Assembly: GCF_003258315.1 (NCBI RefSeq)
Contig: NZ_CP030032.1
Location: 2,177,804-2,209,803 of the forward strand
Length of the DNA: 32,000 nucleotides
DNA from: Bradymonas sediminis
Lineage (GTDB): Bacteria > Myxococcota_A > Bradymonadia > Bradymonadales > Bradymonadaceae
Direction: 5' to 3'
Shown: in pieces, positions 8,179 to 24,132 of the stretch
Numbering within the stretch: position 1 is the first letter of the stretch
Layout: each line of letters opens with the position of its first letter
Made by a program: the position numbers and the translations under genes
Notes under the pieces: generated by a model
What the model saw: the letters and a program-made list of their open reading frames with translations, nothing else
The model's database searches: none
What the model was told of the DNA's origin: nothing

Positions 8179-8197
8179 TCCCTGCAGATACCGATGC

Positions 8198-9553
8198 TTA
8201 TTTATCGATATATTTGGCGAGCTTATCGATATTGTCGCGCGTCGTCTTTTCGGTGACGGCGACCATCAGATAATTTTCCCAGTCGGGGTTGATACGCCCC
8301 ATATCGAAGCCGGGCATGATGCCGTCGGCGCTGGCCTCGGCGACGATATCGCTGGCCTTGGCGCGGGTCTCCAGGACGAACTCGTTGAAGATCGGCCCCG
8401 AAAAACGTCGGCGCGCGCCGCCGTTCTCGGTGAGCTTTTCGAGGGCGTATTTGGCGCGCGAGAAGTTAAGCTTTGCCACGTCGCGCAGGCCCTCTTTGCC
8501 CATCAGGCTCAGATAAATGGCCGCGGCCAGGGCCATCAAGCCCTGGTTGGTGCAGATATTACTGGTCGCCTTTTCGCGCCGGATATGCTGCTCACGGGTC
8601 GACAGCGTCAGGACATAACCCTCGCGCCCCTCGGTGTCGACGGTATAGCCGGCCAGGCGCCCGGGCATCTTGCGCACCAGTTGCTCGCGGCAGCCGAAGA
8701 TGCCGAGCGCCGGGCCGCCGTAGCCCATCGGGATGCCGAGGCTTGTGCCCTCTCCGGCGATGATATCAGCGCCGAAATGCCCGGGAGGCGTAGTCAGCGC
8801 GAAGGCCAGCGCCTCGTTAAAGCAGGAGACGACCTGGATTTTATGCGAATGCGCCCACTCGATCATCTCGCGCGGGTCCTCCAAGACGCCAAAGAAGTTC
8901 GGGGATTGATAGATAATACACGCGGTCTTATCGGGCTCGTCCACCGCCTTTTGCAGTGATTCGAGCGAGAAGCGACCGGTCTGTGGGTCCACCCCGAACT
9001 CGCGATATACATCGCCCTGGGCCGCCAAATAGGTCTTAATGACGTCGCGGTATTCGGGGTGCACCGACTCGGCGACGAAGACATAGTCGCGCTTTCGGCC
9101 GACGCGCTGGGCCATCAGCGCGGCCTCGGCGGTGGCGTGCGCGCCGTCATACATCGACGCGTTCGCGATCGGCACACCCAGCAGCTCGGCGACCATCGAC
9201 TGAAACTCGAAGATCGCCTTGGTCGTGCCCTGGCTAATCTCGGGCTGATACGGCGTGTAGGAGGTATAATACTCGGCGCGCAGCAAGAGCTGATTGAGCG
9301 CGTGGGGCGAGTGATGGTTATACATCCCGGCCCCCAGAAACGAGACCGTCTCGGGCGAGGCGACCTGATTCTTGGCGGCCAGCAGCCCGAGGTCGCGCTC
9401 AAGCGACAGCTCGCTCTGCGGCTCGGCGAGCGCCAACTTCCCCTTAAAGCGATACTCGGCGGGGATCTGCTCGAAGAGCTCTTCGATCGACTCCACGCCG
9501 ATCGCCTCGAGCATCGACTCGATATCTTCCAGGGTATGTGGCAAATAACGCAT
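8198..9553 (-). CDS. gcvPA: glycine dehydrogenase (aminomethyl-transferring), subunit 1
   Basis: 451 aa. MRYLPHT-EDI-MLEAIGV-SIEELF-IP… is the typical GcvPA N-terminus, and …SYTPYQPEISQG… is present. Last gene of the gcv cluster. Confidence 0.93.
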   Translation of the reverse strand: MRYLPHTLEDIESMLEAIGVESIEELFEQIPAEYRFKGKLALAEPQSELSLERDLGLLAAKNQVASPETVSFLGAGMYNHHSPHALNQLLLRAEYYTSYTPYQPEISQGTTKAIFEFQSMVAELLGVPIANASMYDGAHATAEAALMAQRVGRKRDYVFVAESVHPEYRDVIKTYLAAQGDVYREFGVDPQTGRFSLESLQKAVDEPDKTACIIYQSPNFFGVLEDPREMIEWAHSHKIQVVSCFNEALAFALTTPPGHFGADIIAGEGTSLGIPMGYGGPALGIFGCREQLVRKMPGRLAGYTVDTEGREGYVLTLSTREQHIRREKATSNICTNQGLMALAAAIYLSLMGKEGLRDVAKLNFSRAKYALEKLTENGGARRRFSGPIFNEFVLETRAKASDIVAEASADGIMPGFDMGRINPDWENYLMVAVTEKTTRDNIDKLAKYIDK

Positions 9554-9616
9554 GATAACCTCGTTTCTAACAAGCCGTAAAAGCCAGCCTCAACTCAGCA
9601 CGCCCAGCCCATCTAC

Positions 9617-10003
9617 TTAGCCGCGCTCGACAAATGCACGATACTCGTCGGCGTCCATCAGGTCGTTGAACTCCTGAATGTCGTCGGGGCGCACGCGCAT
9701 CATCCAGCCCTCGTCAAAGGGGCTCTCATTGATGGTCTGCGGGGCGTCCTCAAGCTCCATATTGACCACGATGACCTCGCCGCTGATCGGCGCGTAGAGG
9801 TCCGAGGCTGCCTTGACGCTCTCGAGCACGCCGAACTCTTCGCCGCTCTCGATGGAGTCGCCTTCTTCGGGCAGCTCGACATAGACGATATCGCCCAGCA
9901 GATCCTGGGCGTGCCAGGAGATGCCAATGGTGATGCTGCCGTCCTCTTCCTCGCGGGCCCACTCATGTTCTTCGGAGAATCGGTAACCTTCTGGGATTTC
10001 CAT
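9617..10003 (-). CDS. gcvH: glycine cleavage system H protein
   Basis: 128 aa with the lipoyl-lysine motif ESVKAASDLYAPISGEV. Confidence 0.95.
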   Translation of the reverse strand: MEIPEGYRFSEEHEWAREEEDGSITIGISWHAQDLLGDIVYVELPEEGDSIESGEEFGVLESVKAASDLYAPISGEVIVVNMELEDAPQTINESPFDEGWMMRVRPDDIQEFNDLMDADEYRAFVERG

Positions 10004-10089
10004 AATTTTGCTCGCAAATTGCTAAAAAGATTGAATTGAATAGTACGAAATGAAACGCATCATTCGCGGTGGCGAATCATGCAAAAAAC

Positions 10090-11208
10090 CTAATCGCGCT
10101 TGTAAAAAGGCTTGCTGGTGAGTTGGGCGGGGACGCGTTTTTTTCGAATCTGGATGTCGACCATCGGCGCATCCGCAAATTCGAGGTCGATGTACCCCAG
10201 CCCAATGCTTTCTTCAAGCGTCGGCCCCCACGATCCGCTGGTGACTTCGCCCACGCGTTGCTCCCCGATATAGATCTCATATCCGGGGCGAATCATGCCT
10301 TTTCCCTGCAGGACGAAGCCGCAAAGCTTGCGGGTGAGTCCGCGCTCTTTGATCGACTTGAGCGCGTCCTGCCCGACAAAAGGTGTCTTCTTTTTAAGCT
10401 TCACTGTCCAGCCTAAACCGGCCTCAAATGGGTTGGTTGTTTCATCCATTTCCTGGCCATAGAGGTTAAAGCGCGCCTCGAGCCGAAGCGTGTCGCGACA
10501 ACCCAGCCCGCACATCGCCAGGTCGAAGTCTTCGCCGGCCTCAAGCGTCGCGTCAAACACCGCCTCAGCCTGCGCCACCGGGATATACAACTCGAAGCCG
10601 TCCTCGCCGGTATAGCCGGTGCGTGACACCAACATCTCGACGCCGGCGACCACGCCGCGCCGCGCCCGATAGTAGCGCAGCGCCTCGAAGGCGTCGGCCT
10701 CATCGGGGGCGAGCGCCTTGAGAAGATCGATGGCCCTGGGGCCCTGGATGGCCAGCAGCACGTATTGGTCGCTGGTGTCTCGGAGCTCGGCGTCGCCGCG
10801 CGCGTTCGCCTTCATATGGGCAAGATCTTCGGCACGCCGGCTCGCGTTCACGCAGACCATCACATGATCTTCGGCGAGTCGATAGACCAGGACGTCGTCG
10901 ATGATGCCGCCCTCTTCGTTACATAAGGCGGCGTACATGGCCTGGCCGTCGACCAGCTTGGAGGCGTCGTTGGTCACCAGGCCGTCGATCATCGCGATGG
11001 CGTCGGGGCCGACGAACTCAACCTCGCCCATATGACTGACGTCAAAGAGGCCGACGCCATTGCGCACCGCGAGATGCTCCTCCTTAATCCCCGCGTATTG
11101 CAGCGGCATCATATATCCCGCGAACGGGGTCATCCGCGCGCCGAGCTCGCGGTGACGGTGCTCAAGCGGGATGGACTTCGTATCGGTGCTCTCTTGCGCG
11201 TCAGACAT
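10090..11208 (-). CDS. gcvT: glycine cleavage system aminomethyltransferase T
   Basis: 372 aa. …PLEHRHRELGARMTPFAGYMMPLQY…GLFDVSHMG… are canonical GcvT motifs. GGAGA Shine-Dalgarno sequence upstream of the ATG. Confidence 0.95.
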   Translation of the reverse strand: MSDAQESTDTKSIPLEHRHRELGARMTPFAGYMMPLQYAGIKEEHLAVRNGVGLFDVSHMGEVEFVGPDAIAMIDGLVTNDASKLVDGQAMYAALCNEEGGIIDDVLVYRLAEDHVMVCVNASRRAEDLAHMKANARGDAELRDTSDQYVLLAIQGPRAIDLLKALAPDEADAFEALRYYRARRGVVAGVEMLVSRTGYTGEDGFELYIPVAQAEAVFDATLEAGEDFDLAMCGLGCRDTLRLEARFNLYGQEMDETTNPFEAGLGWTVKLKKKTPFVGQDALKSIKERGLTRKLCGFVLQGKGMIRPGYEIYIGEQRVGEVTSGSWGPTLEESIGLGYIDLEFADAPMVDIQIRKKRVPAQLTSKPFYKRD

Positions 11209-11258: not shown

Positions 11259-12212
11259 TCAGCGGGTCTTATCACAGATCTCACCGCCACGAATGACCAG
11301 GTGATGGGCGGCCAGGGTTGCGTGGAGCGTGTTTTCCATGAGCGTCGCCACGGTCATCGGGCCGACGCCGCCGGGCACCGGCGTAATAAGTGAGGCGCGC
11401 TCGCGCGCGACCTCGAACTCAACATCGCCCTGCAGCGAGCCGTCGGCCATGCGGCTGATGCCGACGTCGATGACCACCGCCCCGGGTTTAACCCAGGCGC
11501 CCTTGATGAGCTCGGCCACGCCCGTGGCGACGACCAGGATATCGGCGCGCTGCACGATATCGGCGAGGTTCTCGGTAAAGCGGTGACAGACCGTGACGGT
11601 CGCGTTGGCGCGCACGAGCATCTGGGCCATCGGGCGCCCCACGATCATAGAGCGCCCCACGACCACCGCCTGTTTGCCGGCGCAGTCCACGCCGCTTGCC
11701 GCGAGCAGCGTCATGATGCCTCGCGGCGTGCAGGGCTCCAGGTTAGCCTGGCCGCTCATCAGCCGGCCAAGATTATTCGGGTGAAACCCATCGACATCTT
11801 TGTGCGGGGCGACCGTCATAATCGCCTCTTCGGAATCGTGATGCGCCGACAGCGGCAATTGCAACAGAACCCCATTCACCGCCGGGTCCGCGTTGACGCG
11901 GCGCAGCTCGGCCAGGAGCTCCTGCTGGGAGATATCGGCCGGCAGATGCAGGTGCGAGCTCTCAATGCCGACCTTTTTGCACGCGCGAATCTTATGGCGC
12001 ACGTAGATCTCGCTGGCCGGGTCATCTCCCACGCGCACCACACAGAGATGCGCACGAACCTCGCGCTCGGCGAGCAATTGGGTCGCGTCTTTGATCTGGG
12101 CGAGCAAGGCGTTCGCAATCTTTTTGCCATCGAGCAACTTCGGCGCGGCGCTCGAGGCGGCCTGGCGAAGCGGCGTGATAGCGGCTTTAAAATGGGGTTC
12201 AAAAGCGCTCAT
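11259..12212 (-). CDS. folD: bifunctional methylenetetrahydrofolate dehydrogenase/cyclohydrolase
   Basis: …LDGKKIA…VRVGDDPASEIYVRHK…VVVGRSMIVGRPMA…ITPVPGGVGPMT… The 317-aa model has about 25 extra N-terminal residues compared with typical FolD. An internal TTG (KLLDGK) could be the true start. Confidence 0.9.
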   Translation of the reverse strand: MSAFEPHFKAAITPLRQAASSAAPKLLDGKKIANALLAQIKDATQLLAEREVRAHLCVVRVGDDPASEIYVRHKIRACKKVGIESSHLHLPADISQQELLAELRRVNADPAVNGVLLQLPLSAHHDSEEAIMTVAPHKDVDGFHPNNLGRLMSGQANLEPCTPRGIMTLLAASGVDCAGKQAVVVGRSMIVGRPMAQMLVRANATVTVCHRFTENLADIVQRADILVVATGVAELIKGAWVKPGAVVIDVGISRMADGSLQGDVEFEVARERASLITPVPGGVGPMTVATLMENTLHATLAAHHLVIRGGEICDKTR

Positions 12213-12421
12213 AAAAACTCATTTCCTGGTTCGTGAAACAGCCGGAAATCGGCCGCGTCGAGCGCACTATAGCAGCGCATTCGGCGGTGTCTACCGGGTC
12301 TTCGTGGAGGCAAACCAGCCAGCGGTGGGGTTCATTCGATTTTTGATTAGTTGGGCGGTTTTGTTCCGTCTCGCGCGGGCATTATATGTTGTTAGCGTCA
12401 CACTAACCCCGAAACTGAGCT

Positions 12422-12596
12422 TGATTCAGTTTTCCGGACACATCGAAGATGTATAATCACAGAAACTCAACGAGGTGTTCAAATGAAACGGCATCCAAAA
12501 GAATTCAAGCACGAGGCGGTTCGCCTGCCCTATCTCGACGACCGCAGTGACGTTGCTCTCAGCTCCGATTCACGGACTCGCCACAACGTGTTTTAA
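12422..12596 (+). mobile_element. IS3-family left-end remnant (terminal IR plus first ~37 codons of orfA)
   Basis: TG-initiated end TGATTCAGTTTTCCGGACAC (12422-12441). 61 nt later an ATG (12483) opens MKRHPKEFKHEAVRL…, matching the IS3 OrfA N-terminal signature (EFK-EAV-L). The match degenerates to a stop at 12594-12596. The region is visibly lower in GC. Confidence 0.5.
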
Positions 12597-12682
12597 AGCC
12601 CCCTGCATATAGCATATTATTTGGGCAGCGCCCGGATATCACAACGATTTACGCACACCTCCGGTGCGAGCATATCAACAGT

Positions 12683-13663
12683 TCATTCCTCCAATAAACC
12701 ATCAAGATACACCGCCAACCTTTGGTCCAAAACCAGGACCTCCTGCTCCAACCAAACGCCGTCACTCGCAAGCCGCTGGACCCACTCAGGCGCGTCGCCA
12801 AGATCGAGGTCGGCGGGCCACCCTTTCATTTGGCCACGGTGCGCGACCTGCTCCTGCCAAAACGGCGGGAGAGCCCAGATAAGATCGGGACGCAGGCTTC
12901 GCAGATGCTTCATAATACCAAAACCATCGTGATCGAGGTCGCCGAAATGAACCACCGGCGTGGTCGAAAGAAGCTCCAGAAGATACCGCGCCGTCGCCGT
13001 ATTCCAACCCGGAACAAACGCAACCATCCACCCGGGCGGCACCTGAATATCGACAAAAGTGCCCAGATTTTCGACGGTCAACAACGCCTTCGGCAGCACA
13101 CCCCGAAGCTGCGTTCCATCGAGCAAAGCCCGCTCCGTCAGGACTAACTCTCCCAGGCATTCGGCAAGCGCGTTGGCATCCAATTCGGCGGTGTTTCGGA
13201 TCACGCTCAAACCAGCATTTGGGCGGATTCGAACCAGCCCATCCCGCGTCACTTCGACCTCGTCAATGGCCTCCCGCTGCTCCTCACTAAGCGTTGCCTT
13301 GGAATGAACACCGAGCACCGCGTTCGCCGTACGTTGGTTGAGACGCCGATGCCTCATTTCCGGCAAGGCTTCGACGCGCCGCTTTTCGCCCAGACTTCGA
13401 TAGCCATGCAGGTCCACCTTCAAGCCCCGGCGGCGCAGCTCCGCCTCAACCTCGCGCCATGTGGGGAAGACACGATCGAGCATCGTTTCAAGCGCCGGTC
13501 GGGATGCCTCATCGAGCGCCAATTCACGGTGCCGCGCGCTCCGGCGCGACCACGGTAGTTCGGCGAGTTCCTCCCAGGCGGCCGCCTGAGATTTGCGACG
13601 TTTTAGGGTGCCCGACGCCCAAAATTCGAGCAGGGCGAGCTGGTGGGCCTCATTACTCCACAT
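12683..13663 (-). CDS. jetD: Wadjet JetD / MksG-like Toprim (topo VI-like, DUF2220-type) nuclease subunit
   Basis: 326 aa. Toprim-like acidic set E198 (LLTVENLGTF) and D242-x-D244 (VVHFGDLDHDGFGI), C-terminal WLEQE. The ATG overlaps the jetC stop (TGATG, 13661-13665). Confidence 0.85.
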   Translation of the reverse strand: MWSNEAHQLALLEFWASGTLKRRKSQAAAWEELAELPWSRRSARHRELALDEASRPALETMLDRVFPTWREVEAELRRRGLKVDLHGYRSLGEKRRVEALPEMRHRRLNQRTANAVLGVHSKATLSEEQREAIDEVEVTRDGLVRIRPNAGLSVIRNTAELDANALAECLGELVLTERALLDGTQLRGVLPKALLTVENLGTFVDIQVPPGWMVAFVPGWNTATARYLLELLSTTPVVHFGDLDHDGFGIMKHLRSLRPDLIWALPPFWQEQVAHRGQMKGWPADLDLGDAPEWVQRLASDGVWLEQEVLVLDQRLAVYLDGLLEE

Positions 13664-16600
13664 CAGGCGTCGCTCCCTATCGCGCGCCGGCCGGTCACCC
13701 GGACCACCTCGCGCGCATCTTCGTCGACCTGGCGAATAAGCCGATACGTCGTGTTTCCCTGCGCCTGCGCAATCTCAGGTGCCGCGATTAGCAACTGAAG
13801 CTCCAGGTTTTCGCAGAGCTCGAAGAGCACGCCCAAATTATCCTGTGAGAGCCGATTCGCCTCGTCGAGAAAGAGAAAACGCAGCGTCCCACTGGAGCGC
13901 TTTGCGCGCAGCAAATTCGCGCTGCGCTCCCACGCGGTCAGGACCACCATCATGATCGCCGCGCCGACCCCAATCGCCTCACCGGTCGACATCTGAGACG
14001 GCTTCGCCCGCTCCCAATCATGCCCCGCCTGGCGCATCACCTCGATCCGCAATTCCAGATATTCACGATAATCCAATAAGCGCTGCCCCCCCGTTTTCCC
14101 GCCACCAAAACGCGTCGCGATATTCGCCATCGCATCCTCAAAGGACATCTCGGTTTGGAAGAGAAATTTCTGCGCCTCCTCACTGCGCAGCGCCTCCAAG
14201 ACACGCTCCTGGCGCTCGACGCGGTCCACCCGAATTCGCAACCCGTGGATGCTCCCAAATCGAATCTCGCGCAGCTCCTTATTTAACTGCGTCACTTGCC
14301 GATTCGCTTTACGCCGCTGCGTCTCGATATTGCGCGCAACATCCGCAGATTTCCCGCGCAGACTTCTCTCCTGACCGTCCAACTTCGCGCTGAGCTGCTC
14401 CAAATGAATCCGCAGACGCTTAAGCGAGGCGAGCGGGTCATCGCCCTCGGCGATCTGCAAGGGCACACGTCGCCGAAGCCAATCGCGCGCGCCCAGCCAG
14501 GCCCGCAAATAGGCCAACCCCGACTCACCTTTGGTGCCGTCGAGCGCGTCGCGAACTTTCTGCGCTCTTTCAATCCCACCCTCGGATTGCCCGAGACGCT
14601 CTATAAGTAATTTCGCGCTACTTAGAGCCTCCGAAAACAGATTCACCGACCCTTTGTTCTGAGTTTGCTCCAGATAGGCCGGAGTCATCACGCTGCAGAG
14701 AATTCCGGCTTCTTCAGCCTCTTGCTGCAGCCGCTCCCAGCGCGCTGCCTGCGGACGCCACTGAGCTTCTGACTCACTGAGTTCGTTGCGCGCATCCTCA
14801 ACCTTAACTGCCACCGCCTGGTGTCTCACCCGCGCCGCGACGACCGCATCGCCAAGCTCCCGCTCCTGTCTATCGAGCCGCTCAGACTCCGCTCTCCAAC
14901 TCTTATTGGTCTGCTCAGCGCGCACCACCGCTGCATCACTGGCGTCCTCAACACCGGTGGTCGCAAACTCCTCTTTATCCCGCTGAAGTGTGGCGTTTAG
15001 AGCCTTTAATTCCGCGTCCACCAGACGCATGCGCTCACTCGCCGACTCATAATCGACCTCGGCCGCGTCCTGCTCTTTTTGCGCCGCATCACGCGCCTCT
15101 TCGGCCAGCTTCAATTGCGCATTGAGCACCGGGTGAAGCGCCTGCTTTTTTTCCAACGCAGCCGGCGCATCGGACCACTTCAGCGCATGCGAATTCTCGA
15201 CCACTTCACTCAGCGCATCGCGCAAACGCCTCTGCGTATCGCGCTCCTCACACACCTTCACAGCTTGGGCGCGACGCGTCGAAAGCTGCGCCTCGGACAG
15301 AGGAATCTCTCGCAAAATATCAAGCCCCTCTTCCACAATCTGACGCGGCTCAGCCACCGTTTTCACCCGTATTTTTGCCGCGCGCGCGTCGTCTAAACGC
15401 CGCTCAAGCGCACGCGCATGCTCGGCCTGATCGGGCAAATCGAGGAGGTTTGCACTCGGCAAAAGCCCCTGCAGCCCACCGCGTCGTGCCCTGATCTTCT
15501 CAATTTGGGCGCTGAGCCTTTCAAGCTCAAGCGCGTGGCGATGGGCGGTGTTTTTTGCCGCGGCGAACCTCCCCTGAGCCGCGTGCAACTCCGGCGCTGG
15601 GTCCGCGCGCTCAAGAAGCCCGACTTCGGCGAGCAGCACCGTAACACTTGTAAGCGCATCCTCAACGCGGCGCTCATCCGCCACGGCCCGCGCCAACTCT
15701 CCCTCCGCATCGACAACCTCGAGCCCCAATTCCTCGATGAGCTTGGTCCGCGCCCTGCGCCCCAGCGTCGGCTGAGCCGGCACAGTCGTCATGCGATATC
15801 CGCTATAAGCCTCCACGAATACCGCGTCCTCAAAACCCGCACCCTCATCACTCTGCGAGCGCCTCTCCAACTCCTCCGCCAGCCGCGTGCTCTCCTCGAT
15901 AAGCCAGACCGTCTCCGGGCGTCGCGGCTCTTCGGCCAACTTCTTCGCAGCTCGCCAGATATCGTCGACGACAATCGCCTCGGCGAGGGGGCCCAGAAGC
16001 GCCTGCACCCGGCCAGCATCCTCGACCGAAATATTATCAAAATGCCCCGCGAGCAGTTCGCCCTCGGCCGCATCACGCGCCCTCAAAACCTCCGGGCGAA
16101 ACTCACCGCCACCGCCTTCAAGCTGCTCAATTCGCTTCAACAACGCATCAAGTCGAGCGCGCGCTTTTTTGTGGCGCTCGCGAAACGCATCGCGCCTGTC
16201 TCCCAAAAACCTATGCAACGCCTCCACATCGGCGCGACTCTCTAGCGGTCTCTCGGGTTGCCATGCCTTTGCAAGCCTCGCCGCAACTTCGCGCAGCGCG
16301 CGCCAACGCGGAAGCAACGCCTGAAGCGCCTCAATCGAACCCTCCAACTCCCGCACCTCACGCTCGGCCTCATCACTCGCCGCGTGCTCACTCGCCTGAG
16401 CGCCCCGGGCAACTTCCAGCTGCGCATCAGCGCCATCAAAGGCCGCGCGCACATCTTCTTGAGAGCGAAGCTCCGCGTTCGGCTCACTCCAGCGCGCCGC
16501 TTTTTGCCACGCATCTTTTTGCTTCGCCACAAGCACCCGCGCCTTCTCAAGCTGCGCGCTAAACTCTGCCACCTGCGCGCCTAAGCTCTCCAACTCTCGC

Positions 16601-18111
16601 AACGCGCTCAACTCCTGGCGCGCCCTGGCGAGCGCCTGTTGGGCCGAAATAGGCGCGCCGCAAAGCTCAGTGAGCGCCGCCAACACACCCTCATGCTCGC
16701 GGCGACGCTGGTCGGCGGTCTCGAGCTGGCGCTCAAGCACCACGATCCTGCGGTCAAGCTCGCCAACACGCGCCTCACACGCCTGGCGAAAACCCGGCGC
16801 CGTCTCGGCACGCACATCTTCGCCGGGCAACCCACGACGCGCCAATTCAAGCTGCTTAGAAATATGCCTAAAAGCCGAGGCCCGATATCGAAGCCCGTCG
16901 ATTCCCTTCTGAAAATCAGCGAGCCCAAGCGTCGCCGATTTAACGTCTTTCTGAGCATCTTTGTGACGATCTCGCGCAAATGCTCGCGCATCTAAAGCCT
17001 TTTGCTCAGCCTGTTGCGCTTGCTCAAAACGCTCGGCCGCAGCCACTCGTTGCGCCTCGCATTTCGCGATCCGACCCGCAATTTGATGCGCCCCCCGCAC
17101 CGATTCAAGCACTCGCCAGGAATCCTCACTCGCCGCTTTAGCAACCTCTAATTCAGCCACTACTTCCGCACGCTCAAGTTCCTTTTTTTTGAGCTCCGCC
17201 GCCAAATCACGCCCCTTATCTTCAACCCGCTTAAGCTCCTCGCCAGCCCGAATAACCTGCCGATGCAACTCATCCGAGCGCACGCGCGTCGCGTGAATCG
17301 CCGCGCCAAACATTTCCTGCCCCGCCTCAAAGACACCGGTGATCTCGGCCTCCATACGCCGCGAACTCTCGACCTCCATACGCGTGCGCCGACAGGCATC
17401 CAGATTCGCGTGGATGCGCTTTAAGGTGTCCGCCAGACCGGTTTCCTCGCTAAAAAGAAACTCGCGCAGCCTCTTCGTAAGCGCCTGCGAAATCCCCCCG
17501 ACCATGCTCGTGTGCAGCATCTGATTGAATTTGCTGCGCTCCTCACGCTCCGAGAGGCGAAGCGGCGCGACACCGCGCTCAAAGAGTTCGCTAAAATAAT
17601 CGGCTGTCTTCGAATAGCTCTTGAGCTGCGCGCCGCTCAGCGCGGCGAGTTCTTTGAGCCGATTCAACTCCGGAACCGCGTCCAACTCACCGTCCCTTCG
17701 CCCGCGATCAAGCAATAGATCCTGCAGCGAGACATCGTCGGCCAACCCACTAATTATGAAGGGCGTCAGGTTGAGATTTGGCTCCGCTTTCCGCTCCAAA
17801 TGAACCCCCGCAAGTAGCCGCTCACCGCTCCCAAGCCGAAAGTCCAACGCCGCATAAGACGGGCTGTTCGCCTCGCCTAGACGCCCATAAATCCCTTTAT
17901 CGCCCCCGGTCGCCTCCGACACCCCAACATTGCTAAAACGCAAAAACGACAGGTCCGGCAGGAGCACCACATAAGCCGCGATCATCACGGTCGTCTTACC
18001 CGCCCCGTTGGTCCCCTCCAGCGCCGTAACATGTTCGTCGAGCAAATAGCGCTGATAAAAGACGCCCTTCCAATTCACCAGAGCCAACTGTGTTGCGCGA
18101 GTGCGTTTCAC
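13663..18111 (-). CDS. jetC: Wadjet JetC / MksB, MukB-like SMC-family ATPase
   Basis: 1482 aa. Walker A GTNGAGKTT (aa 33-41), a very long A/E/R/L/Q-rich coiled coil, C-terminal Walker B LRFLFLDEA and a MukB-like tail LFELCENLELQLLIAAPE…TTYRLIRQV. GTG start overlaps the jetB stop (GTGA). Confidence 0.9.
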   Translation of the reverse strand: MKRTRATQLALVNWKGVFYQRYLLDEHVTALEGTNGAGKTTVMIAAYVVLLPDLSFLRFSNVGVSEATGGDKGIYGRLGEANSPSYAALDFRLGSGERLLAGVHLERKAEPNLNLTPFIISGLADDVSLQDLLLDRGRRDGELDAVPELNRLKELAALSGAQLKSYSKTADYFSELFERGVAPLRLSEREERSKFNQMLHTSMVGGISQALTKRLREFLFSEETGLADTLKRIHANLDACRRTRMEVESSRRMEAEITGVFEAGQEMFGAAIHATRVRSDELHRQVIRAGEELKRVEDKGRDLAAELKKKELERAEVVAELEVAKAASEDSWRVLESVRGAHQIAGRIAKCEAQRVAAAERFEQAQQAEQKALDARAFARDRHKDAQKDVKSATLGLADFQKGIDGLRYRASAFRHISKQLELARRGLPGEDVRAETAPGFRQACEARVGELDRRIVVLERQLETADQRRREHEGVLAALTELCGAPISAQQALARARQELSALRELESLGAQVAEFSAQLEKARVLVAKQKDAWQKAARWSEPNAELRSQEDVRAAFDGADAQLEVARGAQASEHAASDEAEREVRELEGSIEALQALLPRWRALREVAARLAKAWQPERPLESRADVEALHRFLGDRRDAFRERHKKARARLDALLKRIEQLEGGGGEFRPEVLRARDAAEGELLAGHFDNISVEDAGRVQALLGPLAEAIVVDDIWRAAKKLAEEPRRPETVWLIEESTRLAEELERRSQSDEGAGFEDAVFVEAYSGYRMTTVPAQPTLGRRARTKLIEELGLEVVDAEGELARAVADERRVEDALTSVTVLLAEVGLLERADPAPELHAAQGRFAAAKNTAHRHALELERLSAQIEKIRARRGGLQGLLPSANLLDLPDQAEHARALERRLDDARAAKIRVKTVAEPRQIVEEGLDILREIPLSEAQLSTRRAQAVKVCEERDTQRRLRDALSEVVENSHALKWSDAPAALEKKQALHPVLNAQLKLAEEARDAAQKEQDAAEVDYESASERMRLVDAELKALNATLQRDKEEFATTGVEDASDAAVVRAEQTNKSWRAESERLDRQERELGDAVVAARVRHQAVAVKVEDARNELSESEAQWRPQAARWERLQQEAEEAGILCSVMTPAYLEQTQNKGSVNLFSEALSSAKLLIERLGQSEGGIERAQKVRDALDGTKGESGLAYLRAWLGARDWLRRRVPLQIAEGDDPLASLKRLRIHLEQLSAKLDGQERSLRGKSADVARNIETQRRKANRQVTQLNKELREIRFGSIHGLRIRVDRVERQERVLEALRSEEAQKFLFQTEMSFEDAMANIATRFGGGKTGGQRLLDYREYLELRIEVMRQAGHDWERAKPSQMSTGEAIGVGAAIMMVVLTAWERSANLLRAKRSSGTLRFLFLDEANRLSQDNLGVLFELCENLELQLLIAAPEIAQAQGNTTYRLIRQVDEDAREVVRVTGRRAIGSDA

Positions 18112-18794
18112 GACTCGACCTCCATTTCCAGGTCATCGGCTTCTTCCTCATCGGCATCAACGTCCTTATCTTCGACAACGACCTCACCGCATTCAATCAA
18201 CGCGATAAGCGCCGCCTCCGGGTCGGAGAGCCCACGCACCGGCTCTGCGAAACGCATCAAGGGCGCACGTAACGCGATTTCCATATCCGAAAGACGCTCG
18301 ACAAAACCAAGGCGGTCCAAACCCCTAAGTGCTTTCTGGATCTCCCCGCGCACCTCCCTCTCGGCGACCCGCTCGTCGTGCACCTGACCTCGGCGCGAAT
18401 TCAACGCCTTGAGCAAGCGCTCCTTTCCGACGATATTCGTGAGCAACTCCGTCAGTTGTCCGACCTCAACGAGCCCCACCGACTCCGCCGTCGCCGGGTC
18501 CAAACGCATCAACGCGAGCGCTTGCCCGACGAGCATCTCCGCCGTCGATAGGTGACGCCGACCGAGGCGCGCGCCCGAGGGCAAAAGATAAAAATATGCA
18601 TCGCCGCCTTGCACCAACTCGCAATCAAAGCGGCGATAAAACGTCTCCAAATGATATTGCGCGTCGACCAAAAAGCCGAACCAATCGATATCCTCGCGCC
18701 CAATATGGCGACCGCGCCGCAGTTCAAGGTCGACGTCCGGAAAATGCTCATCCAACACAACATCTTCCAGCGAATTATAAGCCTCACTCCTCAT
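18108..18794 (-). CDS. jetB: Wadjet JetB / MksE, MukE-like subunit
   Basis: 228 aa. …RRGRHIGREDIDWFGFLVDAQYHLETFYRRFDCELV…YFYLLP… resembles MukE, with an acidic C-terminal tail. ATGA overlap with the jetA stop. Confidence 0.85.
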   Translation of the reverse strand: MRSEAYNSLEDVVLDEHFPDVDLELRRGRHIGREDIDWFGFLVDAQYHLETFYRRFDCELVQGGDAYFYLLPSGARLGRRHLSTAEMLVGQALALMRLDPATAESVGLVEVGQLTELLTNIVGKERLLKALNSRRGQVHDERVAEREVRGEIQKALRGLDRLGFVERLSDMEIALRAPLMRFAEPVRGLSDPEAALIALIECGEVVVEDKDVDADEEEADDLEMEVES

Positions 18795-20116
18795 GACTCC
18801 CCTCCAAAATCAGAACGCCACGCCCACTCCTCGATTTCCATCGGCGCGGACTCCAAACGGCACCACTCGCGCTCATGGGGCGCGCGCACCTGAACCCGCT
18901 CCGCGACAAGCGCCGCAATCCGCCCGGCAAAACGATAGCGCTGGGTCGCCGGCATCTCGTGGAGCACCCGTTGCGTCACCTCCACCAACGACTCACACCC
19001 ACTGGCCAACGCCTCATCGACGCGCTCCTCAAGCCGCATCGGAAGAAGGTCCTCCGAGACCAACACTACCGCGCGCTCCCGATCCGCCGTTGGCCGGGTA
19101 ACCGGCGCCCGCTCAACCCGCGAGCGCGCCTCCCGAAACAGCCGAATCGAGGGTTCATCGGCCACCACAAACGCAAAACGCCGCTCAAGCTCAAGCCACC
19201 CGGCGAGTTGGTCGCGCAGGCGTTGGCTGACCGCGCGGTCGGGGTCCAGGCGAACGACTCCGCGCAAAAACCGCTGGATATATTGATAATAATCCGACCA
19301 GGCCCGCTGCCGCTCCCCGCCCCACGCCGCCACCCGTTCCAGGTGCTCCTGAACCCGCTGCGCTTGCTCAACCGCCGCCTCGACCTCCGCATCCATTGCC
19401 AACTGTTCAATATCCTGCAATTGCTCATGCAACAGCGCGCTATCGCGCAACAAAATCTCATTGAGCTCGCTAAGCGTCTCGCTCGTTTTCTCCAGCAGAG
19501 CCTCACACTCTTCCACCGCCGCAAACCAATCCCTCAACAACAACGCGCTAATCTCCTCACGAACCTCCCGCTGCTGCGCATCCATCCCGCGCTGGCGCCG
19601 CTCAATCCCCGCGACCAAATCACCCACCGTCACCCTAAGCGGCTCCACCACATCCGCTCGCCACGCCTGCTCATCCTGCGCCTTGCGCGCATCCACCAAC
19701 ACCGTCCCAAGCTGCGAAATCAACGCCCGCATTAACACCACCAAACTCACTCGAGTCAGCGTCTCGTCTGCCACAAAAAAATCGACCACCGCGACCGCGA
19801 GCTGTGTCAGCGTAAACTCCCCATCGCGCACCACCCCCGCCCCGTCCACCCGCCGCAACAGCCGCTGGTCCCGAAGATGCTGAATCGCATGCGTCGCACG
19901 CTTACTCGGATTCGACGCATCCGGCTCGATGAGTTCACACACTTGCAGATACAAATCCGTTAACTGCTCCCCCGTCAAAGACGCAAAATTCCCATGCTCC
20001 GCCCGCACCCGCAACGCCACCAAATAGCAGAGATGCGCCGGCTCAATCACAAGCCCCACACTCGCCCGACTCAGCTTTCCGAGCACCAGATGAAGGTCCG
20101 TCTGCTCATGCACCAC
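18791..20116 (-). CDS. jetA: Wadjet JetA / MksF, MukF-like kleisin subunit
   Basis: 441 aa. The central block …ISALLLRDWFAAVEECEALLEKTSETLSELNEIL… resembles MukF. GGAGGAGG Shine-Dalgarno sequence directly upstream of tandem GTG codons (20116/20113). Confidence 0.85.
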   Translation of the reverse strand: MVHEQTDLHLVLGKLSRASVGLVIEPAHLCYLVALRVRAEHGNFASLTGEQLTDLYLQVCELIEPDASNPSKRATHAIQHLRDQRLLRRVDGAGVVRDGEFTLTQLAVAVVDFFVADETLTRVSLVVLMRALISQLGTVLVDARKAQDEQAWRADVVEPLRVTVGDLVAGIERRQRGMDAQQREVREEISALLLRDWFAAVEECEALLEKTSETLSELNEILLRDSALLHEQLQDIEQLAMDAEVEAAVEQAQRVQEHLERVAAWGGERQRAWSDYYQYIQRFLRGVVRLDPDRAVSQRLRDQLAGWLELERRFAFVVADEPSIRLFREARSRVERAPVTRPTADRERAVVLVSEDLLPMRLEERVDEALASGCESLVEVTQRVLHEMPATQRYRFAGRIAALVAERVQVRAPHEREWCRLESAPMEIEEWAWRSDFGGES

Positions 20117-20337
20117 CCACCTCCTCCTTCCCCCGGCCGATATATCCGCCCGAGGATTGGCATTATCTCTTCGTACTCAACGAAGTTAGCACGCGCCTCG
20201 GAAGCGCCTCAAGCAAGACCACGCGTTCGAGCACCTCATCGAGCCCAACACATCCGCCGGTTGACCTCACCCCAGCACGTTCCTATCTGTTTCCTCCGAA
20301 CGCACCACACCCACGCTCACCACCCAAGAAGGTCACC

Positions 20338-20698
20338 ATGGACCACGACACCTTCAAAATCGGCCCCGACATGCCCGTCCACCGCCTCGGCTTCGGCGCC
20401 ATGCGCATCACCGGCCCTGGCATCTAGGGCTGGCCCGCAGACCGAGACCGCGACAAAGCCCTCCAGCGACGCGCCGTCGAACTCGGCGTCAAGCTGATTG
20501 ACGCCGCCGAGCCTATAGCCCCGAAGTCAGCGAGTACCTGCTCTGCGACGCTCTCAAACCCTATAAAAATATCAACATCTCCACCAAGAACGGGCTCCTG
20601 CATGCAGGTGCCAACGACTGGTGCCCAAACGGCCCCACCCCAAACACCTCGAGATCGCCCTCAACGACTTGCTGCGACGCTTCGAGGTCGACCAAATC
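20338..20698 (+). pseudogene. aldo/keto reductase pseudogene (nonsense, at least 2 frameshifts, 3' truncation)
   Basis: MDHDTFKIGPDMPVHRLGFGAMRITGPGI then TAG (20425-20427) where AKRs have Trp. Homology continues in shifted frames (…RRAVELGVKLID…, …SPEVSEYLLCDALKPYKNINISTKNG…, …KHLEIALNDLLRRFEVDQI) and stops abruptly near 20698. Confidence 0.8.
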
Positions 20699-21150
20699 TC
20701 CCGAATCCGCTCGAGCAACTCGTCGAAATAGTCTTTGCCGAAGCGTTTGTTTAGCTTGAGACGCCCATCGTCCAGCAGAAAACCCTTGACGATAAACTCG
20801 CGCAAAGTGTTCGTGGCCCAGATGCGAAAATGGGTCGCCTGGGTGCTGTTGACGCGGTAGCCGACCGAGATAATCGCGTCGAGATTATAGTGTGAGATCT
20901 CGCGGGTCACCTCGCGGTTTCCCTCGGTTCAAAATATTCGAACATTTCGAATGGTTGCTTCTTCGATAAGTTCGCCGCTCTTATACACCTGTTTCAGGTG
21001 ATGATTAATTGTTTGCACTTCAACTCCAAAAAGCTCCGCCATCCTCCGCTGCGAAAGCCAAAAGCTCTCGTCTTCATGACGGACTTCGACCCGGACTTTG
21101 CCCTCGGGCGACTCATAGAAGATAAGTTCACTTTTATGGTGATCGGTCAT
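20695..21150 (-). pseudogene. RhuM-family protein pseudogene (in-frame TGA plus C-terminal truncation)
   Basis: Track ORFs 20929-21150 and 20572-20910 are one frame, interrupted only by TGA at 20929-20931: …EEATIRNVRIF*TEGNREVTREISHYNLDAIISVGYRVNSTQATHFRIWATNTLREFIVKGFLLDD…FGKDYFDELLERIREI. RhuM-like sequence ends at about 20695, where it abuts the AKR fragment. Confidence 0.85.
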
Positions 21151-21283
21151 TTTTTCGTGCCCTGTGAAAGTTGCTCAATCCAGACCTCAAAATGCCTGTC
21201 TAGAACTGGCCGATTTAACGGAACAGCTCAAGTTCGGTGAATTCCAACTCTATACAATAATCATGATAGCTCAAATAGTTGGC

Positions 21284-21751
21284 TCACTCCCCTCGCTCCT
21301 CTTTGGCACGCTGCTCTTCGCGATAGAATGCGCGCTCAGCAACGCCAACCTGCCACTCCCAAAACGGTAAAAAAACGTCCTCCTTCTCCTCTTTGAGTTG
21401 GTGCCGTGCTGATTCCATTGCCTCAATAATGACAACAGGAACCTCGCCAAGCGTACCGAACCAAGAACCCGTGCTACGATCTCTCAACGCATAATAAAAT
21501 GCGTCACACTCGTCCGATTCTGACTTCGAAGCCCACTCTAATGCTGGCCGTGCGATAGTTCGCCAAGCGGACGTGCCGATGGCAAAGCCGCTGCTTAGTC
21601 GAGCCAGTTGCAAAGCCGAATCCACCGATACTGCTTGACTGATCTGATATTTCAACTCGTTAGGTACTACTCGGCCGTGCGGATCAACATCCAGAAGAAA
21701 TCCCCCAAGAAAGTCGCGGCTATTACTGCCACTCGCGACGCAGTTCAGCAC
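21284..21751 (-). CDS. hypothetical protein (orphan, lower GC), possibly a fragment
   Basis: 155-aa ORF with no motif I recognise. Its first codons overlap the IS3 orfB remnant on the other strand. Confidence 0.35.
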   Translation of the reverse strand: MLNCVASGSNSRDFLGGFLLDVDPHGRVVPNELKYQISQAVSVDSALQLARLSSGFAIGTSAWRTIARPALEWASKSESDECDAFYYALRDRSTGSWFGTLGEVPVVIIEAMESARHQLKEEKEDVFLPFWEWQVGVAERAFYREEQRAKEERGE

Positions 21752-21900
21752 GCCATTTTGCGGTACTTAATGTGGTCCAATGCACATCACATTTACTCAT
21801 TCAATGACTATGTTTCTCCGATGCAGTTTGAGAGGTTCATATTGACGCGGGAAGCGGCAGCGTAAATGCTTCTATTTTAGTGTCCGAAAGACCGGGGGCA
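21731..21900 (+). mobile_element. IS3-family right-end remnant (C-terminal tail of orfB/integrase plus terminal IR)
   Basis: …TRDAVQHAILRYLMWSNAHHIYSFNDYVSPMQFERF… matches the conserved IS3 OrfB C-terminus pattern (TR…I..YI..YN..R.HS.LGY.SP..FE), stop at 21863-21865. The element ends …GTGTCCGAAAGACCGGGGGCA at 21900 (reverse complement TGCCCCCGGTCTTTCGGACAC), the TG…CA type terminus. Confidence 0.55.
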
Positions 21901-22861
21901 TGCCAGGTCGTCGAGACCGCGGGCGCCGCGCATTTTGTGAACTCTTATGGCGGCGACGCGCACCTGCTGCTCTATTCGAATCGCCGCGCCGACGCGGTCC
22001 TTTTGGACGCGCTCATCGCCACCGAGCCAAAGAGCGACCTCATCCCAAAAATCGTGAAGGGCTTGCAGACAAATCGCACCCGCGGGCGCTGGAATAATGC
22101 CCAGGAGAACGTCTTTATCCTGCTGGCGCTCGACCGCTATTTCGACACCTACGAGAAGCAGACGCCTAATTTTGTGGCCAATATCTGGCTCGGCGACGAC
22201 TTCGTCGGTGAACACGCATTTAAGGGCCGAAGCGCCGATTATCAAAACTCGAGCGTCCTGATGAAAGCGGTGGTCGACAAGACCGTGAAGGCCGCCGATA
22301 TCACCATTAAGAAAAACGGTGAGGGCCGCCTTTATTATCGCCTGGGCATGCGCTACGCGCTTAAATCACTCGCGCAGGAGGCCGCCGATTATGGCTTCGC
22401 GGTCGATCGAAAATACGAGGGCGTTGACAACCCGAAGGACGTCTTCCAGCGCGAAGACGGCACCTGGGAGGTCAAGCTCGGCAGCCGGGTACGTGTGCGC
22501 CTGACGATGGTCGCCCCGACGCGTCGCTATCATGTCGCCCTGGTCGATCCCCTGCCCGCCGGGCTCGAGCCGCTTAACCTCGCCCTGGCCACGACCGAAG
22601 CGGTGCCCGAAGATCCGCATGCGAGTACAGCGCCCACGCCCTATTGGTGGTGGTCGCGGCCCTGGTATTCGCACCAGAACCTTCGCGACGAGCGGGCCGA
22701 GGCGTTTAGCTCACTATTGGGCGCCGGCGTGCACGAGTTCACCTACACCACCCGGGCCACCACACCCGGTGAATTCGTGGTGCCGCCGACCAAGGCCGAG
22801 GAGATGTATAGCCCCGCAGACATTCGGACGAAGTGCGTCGACGAGGATGGTCGTGAAATAG
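21901..22861 (+). pseudogene. alpha-2-macroglobulin family protein, C-terminal ~320 codons only (5'-truncated at the IS end, +1 frameshift near the 3' end)
   Basis: …LLLYSNRRADAVLLDALIATEPKSDLIPKIVKGLQTNRTRGRWNNAQENVFILLALDRYF… and …GEFVVPPTKAEEMYSP are typical bacterial A2M C-terminal domains. The natural ending PQTFGRSASTRMVVK* (stop 22859-22861) lies in the +1 frame after a CCCC run at 22812-22815. Confidence 0.8.
22813..22857 (+). repeat. 45-bp direct repeat, left copy (A2M 3' end; att-like)
   Basis: CCCGCAGACATTCGGACGAAGTGCGTCGACGAGGATGGTCGTGAA is identical to 24035-24079. Confidence 0.95.
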
Positions 22862-22953
22862 GGAATGCCTGCCAACGGGGAGGCTAATTTTGCCTCTAAA
22901 GGGCAATCTAGCTTGACTCTAAGGCAGATGATTCTATAGTCCTAAGCAATATG

Positions 22954-22990
22954 ACCGACGCCTCTGCACATCTTTTGTGTACGCGTCGGT
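22954..22990 (-). terminator. possible terminator hairpin downstream of the Abi gene
   Basis: ACCGACGC (22954-22961) and GCGTCGGT (22983-22990) form an 8-bp stem with additional inner pairing, 20 nt after the abi stop. The U-tract is weak. Confidence 0.3.
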
Positions 22991-23010
22991 TCTCATTTGC
23001 CCACCTTATA

Positions 23011-23937
23011 TTACTGCCAGAGCGACCACGTTTCCCAGTTCTCAAAAGTACCCAGACCGTCTAAATCAAAGCGTTTTGGGAACTCCTCGTTTAGCAATCG
23101 CTGTAGCCGCTGACCCCACGAAGAGGTCGGACAGATGACTTTCAGCAATTGCTGCATAATACAGAAATAGAAAAATGGTCGCTCATGTCGCAGTGCTCTC
23201 GGCCAAGTTGGCGGGCTAGCTGAAAGTTCTGGAACATTGATATTCCATAGTCGACTGTGGTGAGCCGCCACGTTGCGTATAAAGTTCAAACTTCGCAGCC
23301 ATTGTGCAAAAGCCTGCCCATCCGGAGCGCCATAATTTTCAGCGATAATCTGTTTATCGTGATGCTGCATCCCGGCAAATAAGTGTGACAATAAGCCGAA
23401 ATCCCAAATTTCAATGGCGACCCAAATTGGGAGTGAACCGCCATATTCTTGGGCGTGATGCTCGATAAATGGTTGTTTTCGAGCGCGCTGGCGTGCCCTT
23501 TCATATTTAGACAACCATAACTCGTGTTTTGTTCGGCCGTTTCTCATTTTCTTTTTTGCGAAATTGCCATGCAGGTATTTGGGCAATTCATGCGCGCATG
23601 GGTCATATTTTCCAAGCAGATAGGCGACATCGACGCGCACAGCCATCTCGATACGTTCCAATGCATCAAGCGCCAAAAGTCGTAATTTTTTGTCGAAGAC
23701 ATATAAACGCGCCACATCCTCAAAACGGCTCCCCGGCATAAACTCATCTAGCCTCTGTCGGGCCTCAGAGTCTGATGCGTCGATGACGCGTAGTGGATAC
23801 CAATATCCACTTAAACGATAATAACCAATGCGCTGCAAATAATCCGTTGCAGCCGCCACATCCTCAACCAGCAAACCGCGTCCTTGCAATCGCTGCAATT
23901 GCTTTTCATATGAACGCCAAGGTTTGAGAGGTTTCAT
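23011..23937 (-). CDS. Abi_2 family (AbiD/AbiF-like) abortive-infection phage-resistance protein
   Basis: 308 aa. …YLQRIGYYRLSGYWYP…LYVFDKKLRLLALDALERIEMAVR…LPIWVAIEIWDFGLLSHLF…WLRSLNFIRNVAAHHSRLWN… is the characteristic Abi_2 motif series. Visibly lower GC than the flanks. Confidence 0.85.
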   Translation of the reverse strand: MKPLKPWRSYEKQLQRLQGRGLLVEDVAAATDYLQRIGYYRLSGYWYPLRVIDASDSEARQRLDEFMPGSRFEDVARLYVFDKKLRLLALDALERIEMAVRVDVAYLLGKYDPCAHELPKYLHGNFAKKKMRNGRTKHELWLSKYERARQRARKQPFIEHHAQEYGGSLPIWVAIEIWDFGLLSHLFAGMQHHDKQIIAENYGAPDGQAFAQWLRSLNFIRNVAAHHSRLWNINVPELSASPPTWPRALRHERPFFYFCIMQQLLKVICPTSSWGQRLQRLLNEEFPKRFDLDGLGTFENWETWSLWQ

Positions 23938-24034
23938 CGATTTTACTTGGTGAGGGTGTTGGCTCTAGCGAGTACAAATGATCCAGAACGAAAGACTAAA
24001 GCTTCCCGTCAAATTTGGCGAGCAATAGAAATAA

Positions 24035-24079: not shown

Positions 24080-24132
24080 GTGATAGATAGACCCGGTCTG
24101 TCATTGCAGTGATTCTATCGATTGAGCAGTTT

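Follow-up and report, generated by a model that had tools for sequence, protein, structure and literature searches.

Does a gene set that resembles the chromosome condensin genes mukF, mukE and mukB, and that is followed by a nuclease gene, encode a chromosome organiser or a defence system? This question is raised by four adjacent genes, here called F, E, B and G, in a 32,000-nucleotide stretch of the Bradymonas sediminis chromosome (NZ_CP030032.1, positions 2,177,804 to 2,209,803; this whole stretch is referred to as the window). Our analyses make it very probable that the FEBG operon encodes a Wadjet (MksBEFG/JetABCD) system of the MukBEF type, most likely a module for plasmid restriction that B. 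sediminis acquired horizontally. The positions of the four genes within the window are as follows:

18791-20116, minus strand: F (mksF/jetA), MukF-like kleisin, 441 aa, GTG start
18108-18794, minus strand: E (mksE/jetB), MukE-like KITE subunit, 228 aa, ATG start
13663-18111, minus strand: B (mksB/jetC), MukB-like SMC ATPase, 1482 aa, GTG start
12683-13663, minus strand: G (mksG/jetD), short Toprim nuclease of the JetD/MksG type, 326 aa, ATG start

The genes are arranged head to tail on the minus strand in the order F-E-B-G, within positions 12683-20116. The ATG of E overlaps the stop codon of F (ATGA), the GTG of B overlaps the stop codon of E (GTGA), and the ATG of G shares 1 nucleotide with the stop codon of B (TGATG); a Shine-Dalgarno sequence, GGAGGAGG, is located 5' of the GTG start of F. 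F, E, B and G form a single translationally coupled operon, and a scan for promoters and terminators around this operon gave background-level signals only. By gene lengths and gene order, the operon corresponds to CP030032.1 2190486-2197919 (AWV89346/45/44/43), i.e., to Wadjet operon #306, type "FEBG", in Data S1 of Burmann et al. 2025, Cell (PMC7617805). G shows 100% identity to a B. sediminis protein. The window operon and its placement are thus not new; the operon is a catalogued but uncharacterised member of the Wadjet group, outside types I-III. B. sediminis belongs to the Bradymonadales, which NCBI taxonomy places in the Deltaproteobacteria.

The initial annotation of this stretch, made from its letters, had described the F, E and B products as unusually close mimics of MukF, MukE and MukB. 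The open reading frames are exactly as it gave them, and their lengths (441, 228 and 1482 aa) are near those of the E. coli K-12 proteins (440, 234 and 1486 aa), with which the F-E-B trio is also colinear. In BLASTP comparisons with the E. coli proteins, B matched MukB with 27% identity over 1051 aa (E = 1e-61), F matched MukF with 27% identity (E = 2e-36), and E matched MukE with 31% identity (E = 6e-28). The E. coli segments quoted in the initial annotation and the four window segments set beside them all proved to be verbatim (the MukB N-terminal segment from residue 10, LFELCERLQMQLIIAAPE at residue 1419 and TTYKLVRKV at residue 1444), and the quoted MukE and MukF segments are present in the BLASTP alignments. 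While the similarity is far beyond chance, the word "mimic" overstates an identity between window B and canonical MukB of approx. 26% over the full length and 35-38% over head and hinge.

Domain searches agree with this assignment in all three subunits: F contains the Pfam domains KicB and MukF_M, E matches Pfam MukE (117 bits) and MksE (108 bits), and B matches MukB_N (239 bits), MukB_hinge (101 bits) and SbcC_Walker_B. B carries a Walker A motif (GTNGAGKT, residues 33-40, with K39), an STGE signature at residue 1375 and a Walker B motif (FLDEA) at residue 1414 with D1416 and E1417; K39, D1416 and E1417 align with K40, D1406 and E1407 of E. coli MukB, and the catalytic motifs are kept in all 37 of 37 aligned sequences. 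A hinge of the MukB type is located at residues 648-809.

When all PDB chains were searched with phmmer (E <= 10), the matches of F, E and B were MukF, MukE and MukB chains only, the best match of B being P. thracensis MukB (E = 5.5e-106 over the full length); JetA, JetB and JetC chains gave no match to F, E or B in this search. As the PDB library searched does contain JetABCD entries (8q72, 7til), their absence among these matches is meaningful. Among the PADLOC models, no JetB model matched E, the Wadjet models gave noise only with F (E ~0.002-0.009), and JetC1 matched B with 44 bits, in the C-terminal head only, as compared to 889 bits for the MukB model. A control operon of the Wadjet group from the same published list (Acinetobacter indicus pB18-1, gene order BEFG) showed zero match to the MukB, MukF and MukE models. 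One could still ask whether the operon is an ordinary type I Wadjet system with a likeness to MukBEF no greater than usual, as the best PADLOC matches of G are JetD1 models. This explanation is almost certainly wrong and is refuted by the PDB, PADLOC and control-operon results: JetA, JetB and JetC of the solved type I and II systems went undetected at E <= 10, while Muk chains were detected down to E = 1e-106, JetC1 scored 44 bits against 889 bits for the MukB model, and the control Wadjet operon was without a match to MukB, MukF or MukE.

These comparisons support the view that the F-E-B trio is much nearer to MukFEB than other Wadjet proteins are, as the initial annotation had proposed. No type I-III JetA, JetB or JetC sequences that could serve as an outgroup were found, either by phmmer against the PDB (E <= 10) or by tblastn against 72,556 plasmids. 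The SMC ATPase, the kleisin, the KITE subunit and the adjacent Toprim nuclease that characterise Wadjet/MksBEFG/JetABCD are all present in the operon; as judged by its predicted proteins, the operon belongs to the Wadjet group and falls outside all three of the named types.

Given this likeness, the operon might instead encode a genuine housekeeping MukBEF, orthologous to that of E. coli, with a fourth gene that is just a passenger, unrelated or regulatory. B and the NCBIfam MukB equivalog model align over practically their entire lengths (query 2-1480, model 3-1470 of 1486) with a score of 888.9 bits, which exceeds the 699-bit cut-off, the lengths and gene order are those of MukFEB, and the annotation pipelines of NCBI (Prokaryotic Genome Annotation Pipeline, PGAP) and of the Joint Genome Institute (JGI) name relatives of these proteins MukB and MukE and assign Gene Ontology (GO) terms for chromosome condensation. 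Against this, F (protein 10-431 aligned to 10-435 of 440) scores 300.6 bits with the MukF model, well below its cut-off of 407, and E scores 117.4 bits with the MukE model, well below its cut-off of 250; hence the equivalog test failed on the three subunits taken together, with B above and both F and E below. By comparison, the genuine MukFEB of a metagenome-assembled genome (MAG; locus L094) scores 615.9, 350.2 and 1862 bits for F, E and B, all above the NCBIfam cut-offs. A housekeeping orthologue is quite improbable on these scores and on four further observations set out below, i.e., the residues at partner interfaces, the coupled nuclease, the separate clade with its wide and patchy spread, and the genomic context.

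Residues through which MukB contacts housekeeping partners were compared in the joint, where K1114, R1122 and K1125 are the basic residues at the AcpP interface (PMC8602292), and in the hinge, where a triple mutant of the acidic residues D697, D745 and E753 affects binding of ParC (and MatP) (PMC8523169). The AcpP site of window B has A1122, Q1130 and E1133 in place of K1114, R1122 and K1125. These positions are K or R in MukB of E. coli, Yersinia and Aeromonas, while 32 B proteins of the FEBG clade show scattered R or K only and are never basic at all three. The neighbouring W1117 is shared by window B and MukB and anchors the joint alignment. In the hinge, D697 is kept (D698), D745 is replaced by E746 and E753 by G759; the D745 and E753 positions are invariant in five aligned canonical MukB proteins and unconserved in the 32 FEBG-clade proteins, and the canonical-clade MukB of MAG L094 has Q at position 753. 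Some caution is called for in matching these residues, as the coiled-coil alignment has approx. 26% identity. The pattern nevertheless fits a bare motor plus nuclease without housekeeping partners, and the missing AcpP and hinge contacts argue against a housekeeping MukBEF.

The trio had also been described as nuclease-linked, and this holds, since a G of the JetD/MksG type is coupled to B; the span first assigned to the system (13663-20116), however, leaves out the G gene itself (12683-13663). G matches Pfam JetD_C with 37.6 bits (cut-off 22), its best PADLOC match is JetD1 (35 bits), and phmmer aligned it with C. glutamicum MksG (8b7f), including the Toprim motifs (VENLG...GDLDHDG). The active-site residues are the Toprim glutamate E198 (VENLG), D242-L-D244 and E306-Q-E308; they are among 22 columns invariant across 23 G homologues, which include E198, N199, G201, D242, L243, D244 and E306-Q-E308. 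An AlphaFold (AF2) model of G has a predicted local distance difference test score (pLDDT) of 91.8, and its top Foldseek matches in the PDB were MksG 8b7f (E = 1.7e-7) and P. aeruginosa JetD 7til, followed by Topo VI-A and Spo11. As judged from these motifs and from the predicted model, G is a real JetD/MksG homologue with an MksG/JetD fold.

The position of B relative to MukB was taken from a published tree and from trees of our own. The published tree (PMC7617805; IQ-TREE on a head and hinge alignment) includes window B as AWV89344.1 and places it in an eight-member clade, all FEBG, together with Sorangium cellulosum So ce56 and So0157-2, P. aeruginosa NCMG1179, Massilia sp., Sulfurifustis variabilis, Thiococcus pfennigii and Plasticicumulans lactativorans. 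This clade is sister to E. coli AAC74010.1 plus Endozoicomonas AMO56802.1, both "FEB", with a bootstrap of 100, and the next branches outward are also FEBG (Azonexus, a Nitrosomonadales MAG, Salmonella Paratyphi B SPB7, Shewanella and Vibrio natriegens); the Bradymonas-containing clade is listed and plotted there and is given no discussion in the text. Our neighbour-joining (NJ) tree was built from 612 head and hinge columns of 32 FEBG-clade B proteins and of MukB from E. coli, Yersinia and three Aeromonas species; as our trees are unrooted or midpoint-rooted, the rooted sister statement rests on the published one. Canonical MukB and FEBG-clade B separated in 200/200 replicates, and in 100/100 replicates of a second tree. 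Inside its own clade, window B shows 48-67% identity over head and hinge.

Window B is, on these trees, a member of the sister clade of MukB and does not fall inside the MukB clade, which speaks further against a housekeeping orthologue. The ATPase-head phylogeny for which the initial annotation had called gave the outcome it anticipated: both the published and the NJ tree support placing the operon on the branch that links defence Wadjet/Mks systems and MukBEF.

Relatives of B are numerous, with more than 800 proteins of approx. 1470 aa at 40-60% identity, many of them named "chromosome partition protein MukB" in their sources (Myxococcota, Planctomycetota, Acidobacteriota, Chloroflexota and others). 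Relatives of G occurred in 151 species in a scan of one genome per species. Among the 80 of these matches for which the locus was fetched with G, 60 showed the full F-E-B-G order, and most others end at a contig edge with B directly upstream. About seven of the 80 depart from FEBG despite available upstream sequence (L016, L018, L029, L052, L075, L076 and L077); L052 seems to hold F and E without B, and L075 and L076 hold G alone. These deviating loci could be degraded operons, assembly frameshifts or further cases of solo G.

The operon is spread over at least eight phyla, with gene trees that disagree with species relationships, and the B and G trees show the same sub-clades. Near-identical operons occur across phyla (Binatia and the gammaproteobacterium UBA7803; Spirochaetales and the gammaproteobacterium MFD05684). 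Shared B and G sub-clades and near-identical operons in distant phyla indicate that the four genes move together by horizontal transfer. A housekeeping MukBEF that carries a passenger gene is at odds with this spread and also with the translational coupling of G to B, the co-evolution of the two and the preserved nuclease active site of G. On a megaplasmid of Burkholderia pyrrocinia, the operon adjoins SAVED, WYL and IS21 genes, and PGAP labels its products MukE, MukB and DUF2220.

Several individual loci deserve mention. The near-identical pairs L034 and L039, and L027 and L046, are MAGs and point either to transfer between phyla in the very recent past or to errors in the binning of contigs. 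An alphaproteobacterial member of the FEBG clade (L079, 6963-10001) has a B of just 1012 aa, with approx. 460 residues of coiled coil gone, and a normal G; this short B recalls the short-B Azonexus/Nitrosomonadales branch of the published tree. Both this locus and an "unc_Enterobacterales" locus (L069) were considered as intermediates toward MukB and rejected, as neither shows a greater identity to canonical MukB than the other clade members do. In a metagenomic contig (L083, 1-3122), a G with an intact active site (P0095, 315 aa) follows a partial B, with a DDE transposase and an S24 peptidase nearby; this G branches outside both the FEBG clade and the group of MukBEF-linked G proteins described below, and the locus may belong to the FEBG clade of the Shewanella/Vibrio/Salmonella type in the published tree.

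In the window, the operon lies in an accessory island flanked on the left by housekeeping genes (pyruvate kinase, PGI, gcvP/H/T and folD) and on the right by an asparaginase and a DEAD-box helicase gene. The features of the island are:

12213-24108, no strand: accessory island of ~11.9 kb, between folD (11259-12212) and the asparaginase gene (24109-25125)
20338-20619, plus strand: aldo/keto-reductase-like N-terminal fragment (weak match, E = 0.002) with an in-frame stop
20572-20910, minus strand: RhuM-family fragment, 112 aa as compared to a 252-position model
21880-22887, plus strand: truncated alpha-2-macroglobulin, MG10 domain only (Pfam)
23011-23937, minus strand: intact AbiD/Abi_2 abortive-infection gene (GC content at third codon positions, GC3, 0.47), at the island's right edge and 3 kb away from the operon

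The operon has a GC3 of 0.67-0.73 and the remainder of the island one of 0.47-0.75, as compared to 0.77-0.85 in the flanking housekeeping genes. GC skew ranges from -0.21 to -0.32 over 14-20 kb as compared to ~0 in the flanks, and is strongly negative across the operon only. The codon composition of the operon is atypical for its host. According to the gene annotation of the window, the elyC-(cmoM)-mukFEB...aspC context of canonical loci is absent around the operon, another point against a housekeeping MukBEF. The fragmentary neighbours (RhuM, the MG10-only alpha-2-macroglobulin and the aldo/keto-reductase with its in-frame stop) could suggest that the operon is itself an inactive remnant of a defence system, decaying in a degraded island; with four full-length open reading frames, overlapping junctions and all catalytic and invariant residues intact, decay of the operon is very hard to credit. 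Two tandem tRNA-Ala(GGC) genes (408-481 and 519-592, plus strand, 37 nucleotides apart) are distant from the island and show no obvious link to it.

We thus favour a MukBEF-type Wadjet system because of the subunit homology, the intact ATPase and Toprim motifs, the coupled genes, the conserved F-E-B-G order, the co-varying B and G trees, the defence island and the sister position to MukB. In such a system, F (kleisin), E (KITE dimer) and B (with arms of MukB length) would assemble into a MukBEF-like dimer-of-dimers, which would load on DNA and extrude loops with ATP. On the model of type I JetABCD and C. glutamicum MksBEFG, G, as a putative Topo VI-A/Spo11-like Toprim nuclease, would be recruited or activated only after both motors have pulled in a small circular DNA completely and come to a stall; it would then cut this circular DNA. 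We infer complex assembly, loop extrusion, circular-DNA sensing and cleavage in the FEBG system from these relatives.

Three points weigh against this interpretation. With its 326 aa, G falls short of the solved chains of MksG (368 residues) and JetD (374 residues), and the template modelling scores (TM-scores) are modest (0.40-0.47); docking of G to the motor may therefore differ. The type I, II and III Wadjet models (Doron 2018/PADLOC) do not recognise the operon, with F and E unrecognised and JetC and JetD marginal. Finally, B exceeds the cut-off of the NCBI MukB equivalog, and PGAP gives such proteins the name "chromosome partition protein MukB".

The question of how this branch relates to canonical MukBEF led beyond the FEBG clade, as a tblastn search with G gave a match in the Aeromonas caviae chromosome, 7.3 kb downstream of mukB. 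This G homologue is present across the named Aeromonas species found; in A. veronii, A. bivalvium, A. caviae and A. hydrophila, mukFEB and this gene share a strand, and the gene follows 4.4-7.3 kb downstream, with species-variable small genes between. The Aeromonas G genes are located at:

L089, 10001-11005: G of A. veronii
L091, 10001-10984: Aeromonas G
L088, 16865-17890: Aeromonas G
L090, 10001-10990: Aeromonas G

In Aeromonas G, the Toprim E, DxD and EQE residues are retained, as are almost all of the other family-invariant positions that were checked (A. veronii shows D141N), and the AlphaFold model of this G (pLDDT 80.6) has MksG, Topo VI-A and JetD as best matches. The ratio of nonsynonymous to synonymous substitution rates (dN/dS) is 0.16-0.31, with both dN and dS several-fold above those of mukB for the same species pairs, which suggests deep alleles or recombination at the spot. 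The homologue of Aeromonas aquatilis (P0094, L082) was considered as an orphan without an SMC partner; this was rejected, as mukFEB is present upstream on longer contigs of four Aeromonas species.

Among 1.84 billion representatives, searched exhaustively, there were just 197 relatives. The nearest of these outside Aeromonas proper are located directly after mukB, with gaps of 24-64 nucleotides, in canonical contexts:

L094 (MAG), 5535-10942: TIM, DUF218/elyC, mukF, mukE, mukB, G ... fumarase, aspC
L095/L096 (Motilimonas-like), L095 5528-10933: mukFEB then G, canonical context
L099 (Pseudaeromonas), 5500-10945: elyC, cmoM-like gene, mukFEB, G, aspC
L101/L102 (abundant uncultured lineage), L101 5513-10924: order as in L099

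MukB of these G-bearing mukFEB loci shows 48-50% identity to E. coli MukB as compared to 26-27% identity to window B, and MukB of L094 and L095, the only two of these loci placed in the tree, falls inside the canonical clade in 100/100 NJ replicates. Chance adjacency of G and mukB was considered and rejected, as five or more lineages show this arrangement inside one and the same elyC...aspC frame. In Motilimonas eburnea (L092, 10001-10969), Pseudaeromonas sharmana (L097, 10001-11008) and an Aeromonas sp. RU39B-type lineage (L098, 10001-10957), there is no mukFEB within 10 kb of G, which immediately precedes aspC in L097 and L098 and is part of the aspC-containing downstream block in L092. These arrangements indicate that the mukB-G link was broken by rearrangement more than once.

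In the G alignment, Aeromonas, L094, M. eburnea and P0343 have an intact set of active-site residues, which are degenerate in L095 (Q198, T244), the P0348/L099-type cluster (S198, H244), Pseudaeromonas P0347, Aeromonas sp. RU39B P0341, P0351, P0359, P0363 and P0365. The degenerate MukBEF-linked genes have lost the Toprim glutamate and/or the second DxD aspartate and are still full-length; their products may be nuclease-dead, non-catalytic MukBEF accessory proteins. Where the Toprim site is intact (Aeromonas, MAG L094 and M. eburnea), the essential condensin may still be nuclease-coupled. The premise of the initial annotation that canonical MukBEF is without a nuclease is thus incomplete: it fails for mukFEB loci of Aeromonas, Pseudaeromonas and Motilimonas-like bacteria, which carry G. 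The G-bearing MukBEF lineages are absent from the published Wadjet operon table (PMC7617805 Data S1), our literature searches found no report of a G homologue at genuine mukFEB loci, and the presence of G at these loci is apparently unreported.

The origin of MukBEF is called unresolved in reviews, and domestication of a Wadjet system by nuclease loss is a published hypothesis. We tentatively propose, as a reading that is quite conceivable though short of probable, that G was part of an ancestral MukBEF operon of which living intermediates of domestication persist, with the FEBG clade as a mobile, nuclease-armed sister. The simplest reading of the loci described here would be an ancestral elyC-cmoM-mukF-mukE-mukB-G-aspC locus in which the nuclease was progressively inactivated, displaced and lost, G being adjacent to mukB in Motilimonas-like bacteria, Pseudaeromonas and other Aeromonadaceae, 4-7 kb away in Aeromonas and gone in Enterobacterales. 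Secondary capture of G beside mukB is a possible alternative to such an ancestral locus, as our own G tree has no root and resolves the degenerate sequences poorly.

The canonical mukFEB loci that retain G also show that two functions can share one locus, and thus bear on whether the FEBG operon of B. sediminis has a dual role, i.e., as a nuclease-armed defence system that also folds or segregates the host chromosome, as nuclease-free P. aeruginosa MksBEF does in backing up Smc-ScpAB. A motor of full MukB length with a MukB-type hinge and intact ATPase would suit such a role, and the literature proposes that Wadjet motors extrude on chromosomes too and that MksBEF helps segregation. A core function is, however, a poor fit to a patchy, horizontally transferred and island-borne operon whose B is missing the AcpP and ParC/MatP contact residues; we regard a dual role as unlikely, and a system restricting plasmids as the better account.

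The main value of the window operon lies in its being a nuclease-bearing sister of MukBEF and in the lead it gave to genuine MukBEF loci that keep a nuclease gene. As a system that combines MukBEF motor architecture with a nuclease and has no contact residues for AcpP and Topo IV/MatP, it is a tractable point of comparison for the question of how a machine for defence could turn into an essential organiser of the chromosome, which recent literature states to be unresolved. The operon also exposes an annotation trap, in that FEBG-clade B proteins, including those of Myxococcota, Planctomycetota, Acidobacteriota, Chloroflexota and Burkholderia, pass the MukB equivalog and carry the chromosome partition name and condensation GO terms (examples are proteins P0101-P0215 and L085, 4330-9422; the linked nuclease is named DUF2220 or JetD domain protein). 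As FEBG operons are missed by type I-III models and automatically named MukB, both defence censuses and inferences on the phyla that carry MukBEF are misled. If confirmed, the presence of G at true mukFEB loci of Aeromonadaceae and Motilimonas would make the domestication hypothesis testable in culturable bacteria.

Among known systems, the window operon is closest to the other members of the FEBG clade of PMC7617805, with which it shares, as member #306, gene order and sizes (F ~441, E ~225, B ~1470 and G ~320-340 aa). It resembles canonical MukBEF (E. coli, P. thracensis) in F-E-B order, lengths, colinear full-length alignment, MukB-type hinge, N-terminal head, W1117 and ATPase motifs, and differs from it in an identity of only 26-31%, in the coupled nuclease gene and in the island context. 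With type I Wadjet JetABCD (E. coli GF4-3; P. aeruginosa PA14) it shares a kleisin, a KITE subunit, an SMC ATPase and a Toprim nuclease with the Topo VI-A fold and, presumably, extrusion followed by cleavage of small circular DNA. Unlike in type I systems, the sequences of F, E and B are not detectably similar to JetABC by phmmer, B has 1482 aa as compared to ~1100-1150 aa for type I-like B by Data S1 coordinates (e.g., Aeromonas veronii, 3423 nucleotides; PMC7617805), and G is approx. 50 residues shorter than the solved JetD chain. C. glutamicum MksG (8b7f) is the best structural and sequence match of G, with ENL...GDLDxDG aligned and the FEBG order in common; identity between the two is 18% with a TM-score of 0.47, and the C. 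glutamicum motor subunits are not MukBEF-like. P. aeruginosa MksBEF, proposed in reviews to descend from a Wadjet system, is likewise a MukBEF-like SMC complex outside the enterobacteria; there the nuclease has been lost and the complex acts on the chromosome, whereas the window operon keeps its nuclease.

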